64,000 bases of DNA from an uncultured delta proteobacterium (GTDB lineage Bacteria; Desulfobacterota; BSN033; UBA1163). Positions 5,116 to 6,127 of this stretch are shown in pieces; positions within the stretch are counted from its first letter, which is position 1, and each line of letters starts with the position of its first letter. Below the pieces are notes generated by a model, which was not told the DNA's origin, ran no database searches, and worked only from the letters and a program-made list of their open reading frames with translations. The position numbers were made by a program, and so were the translations under genes. The stretch is taken from contig CAVPSJ010000004.1 of the NCBI GenBank assembly GCA_963708295.1, forward strand, positions 128,001 to 192,000, in the 5' to 3' direction.

Positions 5116-5329
5116 ATGAAAGTTGCAATCGAGGCGGCTACAAGAACTGTTATCGGTGTACCCTCAGTGTGTTCTTCAGAGTTAACGATACCTGCTATAG
5201 ACCTTCAGTTTTTCAGCCATCGAAAATGTTTGGATTTGATTTTTTTCTCTCGGCGGGGACTCTTCAGGAAGGGTATTGAGAACCAGTTTCGCGGTGTTGT
5301 GGATCAATTGAGACGGCCTTGAACAAGAA

Positions 5330-5400
5330 TCACTCCTCGCCCAGAGCTTCCAAGTCGGCGAGATCTTTCCTTCTCCCCAATGCCCCTTATTAGGTATCAC
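5330..5400 (-). pseudogene. C-terminal remnant of a nucleotidyltransferase-like gene
   Basis: With one indel reads NK.ALGRRKDLADLEALGEE*, resembling the NKxAxGRxKDxADLE C-terminal motif. Confidence 0.45.
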
Positions 5401-5403
5401 TAA

Positions 5404-5727
5404 TCAAGATTGGGCGAGGGCGTAGCCTGCTTTTCTCCATGCCTCTACGCCGCCGGCGAGGCATGCCACATTCTTGTAACCCATTGCCATATACTTCTCT
5501 GCCTGACCGGCAGATGTCTTCTCATCGTGTCAGCCTCAGTAAAAAACGATCTCCTGATCCCTTGACAGCGAAGAAAGTTTGGACTTGAACTCGCTCAGGG
5601 AAATCGCTCCTTCCAATTGCATTGCTTTGAACCTCATCTCATCCTCGTATGCGCAGACGAGCAAAGCTTTCCCGGATTTCAATTTGTCATAAACTTCCTC
5701 TGCGGTAACGCGTTCAGGTTCCGACAT
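5404..5727 (-). CDS. Rhodanese-like selenoprotein with U-G-U (two in-frame TGA) active-site motif
   Basis: AGGAGG RBS and ATG at 5727; ...QEIVFY TGA GGC TGA HDEKTSAGQAEKYMAMGYKNVACLAGGVEAWRKAGYALAQS*; the rhodanese C-terminal signature LxGGxxAW lies in frame beyond both TGAs. Confidence 0.85.
5498..5514 (-). promoter_or_regulatory. Putative bacterial SECIS hairpin
   Basis: TCTGCC-GGTCA-GGCAGA stem-loop with a G-initiated apical loop 21 nt after the second UGA and 27 nt after the first. Confidence 0.7.
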
Positions 5728-5861
5728 GATTTGCCTCCTTTTCCCCAATCCAATTTTCTCCACCATTGTAAATCTCAGTTGGTCAAATAATCAACACTTT
5801 TCCGGAACAACGATGATTCCAAGGTTTAACTTAGCAGTTAACATGGAAAAAACATTTTTCG

Positions 5862-6127
5862 CAGGCTGCTCAAAAATGCCCAGATGCAAGGCGCCCAAAA
5901 TCCTGAGAGTGGCGCCGCGACGAATAAGGAGCGACATCTTGCCACGCCGACGAGTTGGTGAGTCGGCCGGAGGCGTACTTGAATGTACGCTGCAACGACG
6001 AAGGATGAGGGGTGGCGTCGCGACGAATAAGGAGCGACTTATTGCCACGCCCCCGAGCCGGTGAGGGGGCCGGATACCGCCGCAGATGCCTGCCTGCCGG
6101 TAGGCAGGGGCGTTTTTCAGCAGCCTG
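5862..6127. mobile_element. Non-autonomous MITE (copy A) with nested modules
   Basis: Terminal IR CAGGCTGCTCAAAAA...TTTTTCAGCAGCCTG; core shared with 8929-9079; two 37-nt inserted modules and a CCTGCCTGCCGGTAGGCAGG palindrome. Confidence 0.75.

Follow-up and report, generated by a model that had tools for sequence, protein, structure and literature searches.

Rhodanese-type proteins with a Cys-x-Sec (CxU) motif, in which Sec (U) is selenocysteine, are a listed selenoprotein family, named 'form 3' (PMC13188914) or 'COG0607 form 2', and UxxU and UxxxxU motifs are on record for other bacterial families. The double form, Sec-x-Sec (UxU), was described in 2007 in one sentence and a figure on the Olavius symbiont metagenome, as a rhodanese selenoprotein of a deltaproteobacterial lineage in which 'a second Sec evolved ... 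resulting in a UxU motif' (Zhang & Gladyshev, NAR 35:4952, PMC1976440), and reviews of 2022 and 2026 give, in their available text, only the CxU form with one Sec for this rhodanese. A single selenocysteine insertion sequence (SECIS) for two nearby UGA codons was proposed in 2026 for the UXXU Group 4 [NiFeSe] hydrogenases, in PMC13582414. Here we describe a gene of the UxU kind in a window of 64,000 nucleotides (nt) from an uncultured delta proteobacterium (contig CAVPSJ010000004.1, positions 128,001 to 192,000; G000:C4:128001-192000 in the draft source genome G000). It encodes a small rhodanese with two in-frame TGA codons two residues apart, and we consider it likely that both are read as Sec by way of one shared hairpin and that the protein has a redox-coupled role. 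The UxU rhodanese form is not new: the gene has Sec-x-Sec for Cys-x-Sec (Y-U-G-U), matches the 2007 form by motif and family name, and is an already described kind of selenoprotein and no new system. The 2007 sentence, in the text available, does not touch on the sharing of a SECIS, on recurrence or on distribution, and the literature searched, which left subscription journals largely outside, offered nothing more on the UxU rhodanese. The features on which the argument rests are as follows.

5727..5404, minus strand: coding sequence of the rhodanese selenoprotein, 107 amino acids (aa), start ATG 5727-5725, true stop TGA 5406-5404
5538-5536, minus strand: first in-frame TGA (TGA1, or UGA1 in RNA), codon 64, on the canonical rhodanese active-site Cys column
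5532-5530, minus strand: second in-frame TGA (TGA2, or UGA2 in RNA), codon 66, on the near-invariant Sec column of the family
5514-5498, minus strand: SECIS-type hairpin UCUGCC-GGUCA-GGCAGA, stem 5514-5509 with 5503-5498, loop GGUCA 5508-5504
5653..5655, minus strand: Cys25 codon within LLVCAY, a third conserved Cys, in place of the usual 'DVR' Asp

The open reading frame (ORF) called with translation table 11 (5536..5766) terminates at ...IVFY. From the ATG to the first TGA the frame encodes MSEPERVTAEEVYDKLKSGKALLVCAYEDEMRFKAMQLEGAISLSEFKSKLSSLSRDQEIVFY, followed by TGA, GGC and TGA; around the TGA pair it reads ...EIVFY-TGA-GGC-TGA-HDEKTSAGQAEKYMAMGYKNVACLAGGVEAWRKAGYALAQS-TGA (5406-5404), with 41 sense codons after the second TGA, ending ...GYKNVACLAGGVEAWRKAGYALAQS. 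An earlier note on this DNA had claimed that the frame beyond IVFY stays open for 41 codons and contains the C-terminal signature of a rhodanese, and its coordinates and counts were right. The read-through product passes the gathering threshold of Pfam PF00581 (Rhodanese) with 44.8 bits against a cut-off of 22.2 (E 1.7e-11), the match spanning residues 8-99 and profile positions 1-101 of 102. The orthologues share the opening M-x-E-P-x-R, and their ends differ by no more than a few residues. We regard 5727..5404 as confirmed to be a real, small, single-domain rhodanese-type gene with two in-frame Sec codons two residues apart; the predicted protein is cytoplasmic, and its subfamily is without an N-terminal leader.

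We searched 61 related genomes, and an even sample of 401 from across the phylum, in six frames with stops read through. This yielded 47 orthologues, counting the window gene itself, 46-71% identical to the window protein and aligned over 107 columns (alignment A1). Matches weaker than 1.5e-31 in the 61-genome search were taken as paralogues and stand outside the 47, and three matches in the 401-genome sample (G114:C379, G178:C327, G241:C29) were left out, having no locus. The UxU form was found in 11 of the 47 orthologues (L013, which is the window's own, L014, L015, L016, L018, L019, L026, L034, L045, L053 and L055), the CxU form in 35, and a Cys-x-Ser (CxS) form in one (L049, genome G420); the 30 loci of the even phylum sample alone comprise six UxU, 23 CxU and one CxS. 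Column 64 is always C or U, with Cys in 36 orthologues and TGA in 11, and column 66 is TGA in 46 of the 47 and Cys in the CxC homologues of other phyla. The latter were obtained by a pattern scan of named genomes that required Cys at both positions and hence finds CxC forms only, so that all 25 confirmed loci are CxC (FYCAC or FYCGC); by record title they belong to Planctomycetota, Methylomirabilota, Pseudomonadota, Actinomycetota, Acidobacteriota and Nitrospiraceae. The alignment check proposed with the earlier note therefore came out in favor of its claim, with CxC, CxU and UxU all present at exactly these columns, and this complete series puts each TGA at a position where Cys is conserved. 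Both positions can be read in 16 sequences (11 genomic, and five database entries translated as WxW), and none of these is UxC. Judged from the sequences, the invariant Sec of the family is at the second position, and the first position flips between Cys and Sec. At least 90% of the orthologues keep the third cysteine, Cys25, as do the three nearest CxC homologues, and the usual DVR stands at this strand in more distant CxC proteins and in exported paralogues.

Two other branches of the family were noted in the same material. In a Cys-x-Ser branch of the subfamily (FYCAS, FYCGSS or FYCSSAQEE) the canonical Cys is kept and the second redox residue is lost; it comprises the database clusters P0018, P0019, P0024, P0025, P0031, P0098, P0101, P0102, P0106 and P0118 together with L049, which retains a hairpin at the SECIS columns with the loop GGCGA. 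In more distant relatives with a CxU or CxC rhodanese domain (paralogues L036 and L037; L101-L121), the translations show a long hydrophobic, multi-pass N-terminal region fused to the domain.

The stretch after the two TGAs is translated and under purifying selection like the part upstream. Compared with the window gene, the ratio of nonsynonymous to synonymous divergence (dN/dS) over the 36 codons past TGA2 is 0.15-0.45 in the eight of ten UxU pairs with a computable synonymous divergence (dS), and the median over all pairs is 0.22 past TGA2 (800 pairs with dS <3), versus 0.23 for 36 upstream codons (332 pairs). On the maximum-likelihood protein tree, the UxU label requires six changes (five to six across bootstraps), though the tree was built from 107 columns and 10 of its 43 inner branches are unresolved; the strongly supported branches force at least two, with L034 nested among CxU sequences and L045/L055 forming a separate clade. 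The first-position switch between Cys and Sec arose at least twice, and probably more often.

The six TGA bases were also found in independent sequence data. Contigs from the DNA runs X1 and X2 (wetland) and X9 (soil) cover 5530-5538 without a change at any of these bases, and a metatranscriptome contig of run X15 (record 9, 5422-5643, 11 differences) keeps both TGAs, while those contigs do differ at the nearby positions 5515, 5526, 5527 and 5542; the sequencing-run shares were all ≤0.28. As a sign of transcription, the RNA-library contig of X15 is weak. That reads might show TGC or TGT in place of TGA, which the earlier note had named as evidence against its reading, was not borne out in X1, X2, X9 or X15. 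The pair is a product of neither chance nor error, as shown by its recurrence in 10 other genomes, by the public protein clusters that end at ...FY or read WxW (described below) and by the contigs of these four runs.

A hairpin follows the TGA pair. In a gap-free alignment of 75 nt around the motif from the 47 genes (alignment A2, in which column k is window position 5548-k), RNAalifold gave one helix only, pairing columns 34-39 with 45-50 around a 5-nt loop. In an 8-pair version of the helix, 78.2% of the cells are paired as against 73.4% after shuffling (none of 500 shuffles as high), and the covariation score is 0.175 as against 0.094 (again none of 500, with slid controls ≤0.102). The most informative pair, 36:48, occurs as UA in 27 genes, CG in eight, UG in three and AU in one, and is unpaired in eight; its two partners are the wobble bases of codons 72 and 76, and since the covariation is at synonymous sites, the conserved A-A-G-Q-A peptide does not explain it. 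The pair 34:50 (GC 26, UA 4, GU 4, UG 3) links an exchange of Ala and Ser with the residue five codons on. The published model of the bacterial SECIS (bSECIS), as given in PMC13188914, has a loop of 3-9 nt with G in the first two loop positions, an upper stem of 4-16 base pairs (bp), a UGA-to-loop distance of 16-37 nt and a minimum free energy of at most -7.5 kcal/mol. The window hairpin has a 5-nt loop (GGUCA) starting with GG, a 6-bp stem, an energy of -10.2 kcal/mol and a loop 21 nt from TGA2 and 27 nt from TGA1, which bears out the proposal of a G-loop hairpin at a SECIS-compatible distance from both. A search of 5300-5800 against Rfam with E up to 10 returned two chance matches only (a fragment of a long non-coding RNA and a small nucleolar RNA) and did not recognise the hairpin. 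At position 5515 (column 33 of A2), just outside the helix, every covering contig of X1, X2 and X15 has A->U on the RNA strand, a synonymous change in Thr that would give the foot of the hairpin a seventh pair, U-G.

In this element the two forms, UxU and CxU, are alike. The hairpin columns are identical in the two forms, the loop repertoire is the same, with GGUCA in eight of 11 UxU and 20 of 35 CxU genes, and the hairpin energies are alike (-10.55 kcal/mol for 11 UxU and -10.42 kcal/mol for 35 CxU genes; Mann-Whitney p = 0.98); a stronger or shifted hairpin in the UxU genes was not found in this comparison. In sequence, only the middle residue varies along with the first-position Sec: it is Gly in six of 11 UxU and two of 35 CxU genes, a count among related sequences that does not amount to a statistical test. 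Equal columns, loops and stability together with the lack of a second helix are what a single shared SECIS predicts. SelB with its Sec-tRNA on the single hairpin would recode the second UGA at the usual spacing of 21 nt, and the same hairpin would recode the first UGA as well from 6 nt further off, at 27 nt, so that two SelB deliveries would be needed within two codons. The switch from Cys to Sec at the first position would be one base change (TGY->TGA) with the RNA element unchanged, which would explain its repeated origin. To the more specific proposal, that one SECIS programmes two Sec insertions 6 nt apart, with SelB reloading within two elongation steps over a window of 21-27 nt, and that the resulting U-G-U can close to a diselenide, we give an even chance; both Sec insertions, the sharing of the SECIS and the diselenide chemistry are what we infer from these data.

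The closest parallel for the decoding is found in the UXXU hydrogenases, which, according to PMC13582414, likewise have two Sec codons a few codons apart, a SECIS conserved between single-Sec and double-Sec forms and independent origins from Cys forms. They differ in protein family, in that their Sec residues are metal ligands, and in the spacing of the two codons, which is 9 nt there and 6 nt here. The fdhF SECIS of Escherichia coli also resembles the window hairpin in lying within the coding region, a short way 3' of the UGA, and in having G and U in its apical loop; according to PMC8659212 its mini-helix lies 11 nt past the UGA with G23/U24 in the loop, whereas the loop G-U of the window is at 26-27 from UGA2 and at 32-33 from UGA1 (U of UGA = 1, with the fdhF numbering as interpreted), and no bulged U is evident. 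A bench test of two nearby UGAs served by one bacterial SECIS was not found in the literature searched, subscription journals again being largely outside.

The host is able to decode Sec, and its machinery is complete. The source draft has 4.95 Mb in 20 contigs and is 91.5% complete with 5.6% contamination; the genome check suggested by the earlier note found all four of selA (532 bits), selB (353 bits, above cut-off), selC and selD. The tRNA-Sec gene is in single copy, with a UCA anticodon, 94 nt, a Sec-type long acceptor arm, a G discriminator and 81 bits on the Rfam tRNA-Sec model. There are two selD genes with one in-frame TGA each near the N-terminus (GU-AAK). Both lie outside the window (G000:C17:66608-67531 and G000:C4:371872-372792), and in each a G-loop hairpin begins 17-21 nt past the TGA. 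A 3' fragment resembling tRNA-Leu lies at G000:C4:569519-569611 in a stretch without tRNA genes, where it gives a weak Rfam tRNA-Sec match of 21 bits, and is possibly an integration scar.

Several other explanations of the TGA pair were weighed. A pseudogene, or an artefact of assembly or sequencing, would fit the truncation by gene callers and the draft state of the assembly, yet the TGA pair in 10 other genomes, the purifying selection downstream, the covariation of the hairpin and the independent contigs from four runs that keep the TGAs effectively refute it, and we regard its chance as next to nil. That each UGA has its own SECIS, the first being served by a second, unrecognised RNA element, would agree with the report that some bacterial SECIS elements are off the consensus model (PMC13188914) and with a 3-bp mini-helix (CCY...GGG) right after TGA2 in the folds of five of 11 UxU genes; the mini-helix, however, is not in the window's own gene, and occurs also in three of 35 CxU genes, where it is no more than a result of Pro and Gly codons, and with a single helix in the RNAalifold of 47 sequences and UxU and CxU hairpins alike in place, loop and energy, this explanation appears very improbable. 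It is also conceivable that one or both UGAs are read as Cys by a SelB-dependent, Cys-charged tRNA (tRNA-ReC, selC*), which would make the protein really CxU or CxC. PMC13582414 reports tRNA-ReC as enriched in the genomes with UXXU hydrogenases, where it is present in about 56% and either UGA may be Cys, and in the source genome, at its given completeness, ARAGORN finds only 41 tRNA genes. By the published characters (≥80 nt, UCA or GCA anticodon, U discriminator; same source), no tRNA-ReC was found here, neither in the source genome nor in 23 related genomes (10 UxU, 13 CxU), a negative that is limited by draft assemblies and a Sec-trained model. The sole UCA tRNA of the source genome has a G discriminator and its tRNA-Cys is an ordinary one of 75 nt; one strong tRNA-Sec was found in 20 of the 23 further genomes, all 21 strong tRNA-Sec genes, the source genome's included, have the G discriminator, and the three second matches in those genomes are tRNA-Ser. 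Of the other Rfam tRNA-Sec matches of the source genome, those paired to ARAGORN genes turned out to be tRNAs for Ser, Leu or Tyr, in an accounting that leaves out five weak matches (20-32 bits). Reading of a UGA as Cys thus seems improbable to us. An explanation that agrees with all observations is that the first UGA is mainly a leaky stop or a selenium-sensing checkpoint, giving mostly a 63-aa fragment, and the full UxU protein when Sec-tRNA is abundant. The 27 nt from UGA1 to the loop lie outside the clear range of the genome, and two SelB deliveries in two codons should be inefficient if the mechanism of E. coli is a guide. Against this stand the retention of TGA1 in 11 of 47 orthologues and across at least three families within the phylum, its presence in 56 of the best 120 database clusters, the constraint on the downstream codons of UxU genes, which equals that upstream and indicates that selection sees the full-length product, and the fact that a 63-aa fragment would be without the active-site loop and half of the fold; we hold it to be unlikely.

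Decoding of both UGAs as Sec from one hairpin, which we prefer, also has points that weigh against it. The eight other clear SECIS hairpins of the genome start their loop 17-21 nt past the UGA (two NF041203-type rhodaneses, two selD, two Fdh-type and two Prx genes; a small sample, from which the Prx C19 and Mopt C17 TGAs were left out for having no readable G-loop hairpin). The spacing of TGA2 (21 nt) is inside this local range and that of TGA1 (27 nt) is outside it; 27 nt is reached only by a weak candidate hairpin of an FlpD gene, read by eye, for which RNAfold drew another register. Decoding of the first UGA may consequently be less efficient, or SelB may be more tolerant than the small sample shows. 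The 71-nt stretch overall folds no better than shuffles (z = 0.23), the hairpin overlaps the conserved A-A-G-Q-A peptide and part of its conservation is at the protein level, and kinship among the sequences inflates the shuffle statistics. The incompleteness of the source genome, with its contamination, may leave room for a second UGA-reading tRNA. Finally, Sec at codons 64 and 66 is predicted from sequence, and the catalytic roles of residues 64, 66 and 25 are assigned by alignment.

With regard to the active site, position 64 falls on the catalytic Cys of 6mxv (both domains) and of 3gk5, with a gap of one or two residues after it, when phmmer and the A1 profile are compared with the sequences of the PDB, and BH2092 (3o3w, 3nhv) aligns free of gaps with its Cys on position 64. 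These alignments support the claim that the first TGA would occupy the canonical rhodanese Cys, and they suggest a loop of more than the usual length, with the second Sec two residues inside it. In the CxS forms (L049 and 10 clusters) the first Cys alone is retained, in agreement with position 64 as the canonical nucleophile. The canonical single-domain rhodaneses (GlpE, 1gmx; 6mxv; BH2092) thus share the fold family by sequence and the Cys at position 64, and BH2092 shares the long loop as well, which is two residues shorter in most of them; unlike the window protein, they rely on one Cys as nucleophile and lack both Sec and a second, vicinal redox residue at +2. The active-site loop of the subfamily carries a pair of vicinal redox residues, Y-[C/U]-x-[U/C]-P-x-E, realised here as Y-U-G-U.

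A canonical rhodanese bears a persulfide on its Cys. In the mechanism that we propose, position 64 would take up sulfane sulfur or selenium, and the chalcogen at position 66 would attack the loaded residue 64, releasing sulfide or selenide; this resolution would close an 11-membered ring, Se-S in CxU and Se-Se in UxU proteins, which Cys25 or an external thiol system or reductant would reopen, regenerating the pair. The UxU pair would be lower in potential and more nucleophilic. By analogy, the family would be a redox-coupled sulfur or selenium transferase or reductase, and not a plain carrier. To our knowledge, a U-G-U chemistry that closes to a diselenide has been described for no characterised sulfurtransferase.

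The best NCBIfam match of the window protein is NF041203 (rhodanese_LYCAU, 'rhodanese-related (seleno)protein', which corresponds to 'form 3, CxU' of PMC13188914), at 63.9 bits and below the equivalog cut-off of 115, and six more full-length relatives (L041, L025, L020, L014, L098 and one orthologue-type row) score 49-80 bits on it; true members, which are the exported paralogue type of the genome (L038, L040, L042), reach 183-189 bits. Both groups have the same Y-C-A-U-P-x-E loop, and the paralogues of the genome carry a hairpin at the same 21 nt past the UGA. NF041203 members differ in an N-terminal hydrophobic leader and a 'DVR' strand, where the window subfamily has no leader and LLVCAY with the third Cys. 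The window gene belongs to a sister subfamily of NF041203, related to it but no member, and no NCBIfam model above cut-off for the window subfamily was found in the library searched.

The public protein collection contained 379 proteins at E ≤1e-15, and the best 120 clusters (P0002-P0121) were sorted by their endings, the ranking being by likeness to the UxU query and the proportions hence biased. Of these, 51 end in ...FY and stop at the first TGA (one being the window's own ORF), 43 end in ...FYCx and stop at the second, five read WxW and 10 read CxW, the gene caller having translated TGA as Trp, 10 are genuine Cys-x-Ser forms and one is of another kind. In other words, 94 are fragments of 63 or 65 aa and 15 are full-length with Trp for Sec, under the name 'hypothetical protein' and, once, 'ArsR family transcriptional regulator'. 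A TGA at the first position is common, and the family is systematically mis-annotated.

Two further features, both ahead of the start codon, and the surroundings of the gene were recorded.

5740-5734, minus strand: Shine-Dalgarno-like AAGGAGG, ending 6 nt ahead of the ATG, read from the sequence
5765..5794, minus strand: promoter-like TTGATT-18-TACAAT, a consensus match only

The promoter-like site (5794-5765) is not significant alone, one being found against 0.9 expected in shuffles. The gene looks monocistronic; its neighbours in the window, on mixed strands, encode a nitroreductase, a DTW protein, a cupin and an HtrA protease, and synteny is kept only in close relatives. No functional clue was found in the gene neighbourhood, in the window or at the loci of the relatives. 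In three genera a divergent QueF-like gene, then a low-molecular-weight (LMW) phosphatase/ArsC-type gene, adjoins the rhodanese (L015 2122-2909, L026 507-1392 and L043 431-1408, with L026:507-1022 named LMWPc on its resemblance to L043 alone), a pattern too weak to build on, and in L020-L024 an open frame resembling Old Yellow Enzyme, judged by eye, directly follows the rhodanese gene. Just upstream of the window gene lies an interspersed repeat of about 100 nt (5850-5950), with a partial second copy at about 6012-6051. It has 63 blastn-short matches at E ≤1e-3 in the contigs of the genome, many of them with 88-96% identity over 75-98 nt, and in metagenome runs the summed word depth over its core (5860-5893) is as high as about 41,000, with loose ends on both sides. 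It has no Rfam match and folds no better than shuffles, and is probably an element like the repetitive extragenic palindromic (REP) sequences or the miniature inverted-repeat transposable elements (MITE).

To the described UxU rhodanese this analysis adds the full series of CxC, CxU and UxU forms, the recurrence of the first-position switch, the covariation at synonymous sites in support of a single hairpin whose place is constant between the two forms and the lack of a detectable tRNA-ReC, together with the caveat that UGA1 lies beyond the spacing of the other clear SECIS elements of the genome. The dependence of decoding on the distance between UGA and SECIS, and the service of two UGAs by one SECIS, have so far been debated from sequence only, and a monocistronic gene of 107 aa with natural CxC, CxU and UxU versions and an identical hairpin across them offers a compact test case. 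If the reading proposed here is true, the SECIS-neutral switches from Cys to Sec at position 64 would be a natural experiment on what a second Sec contributes.

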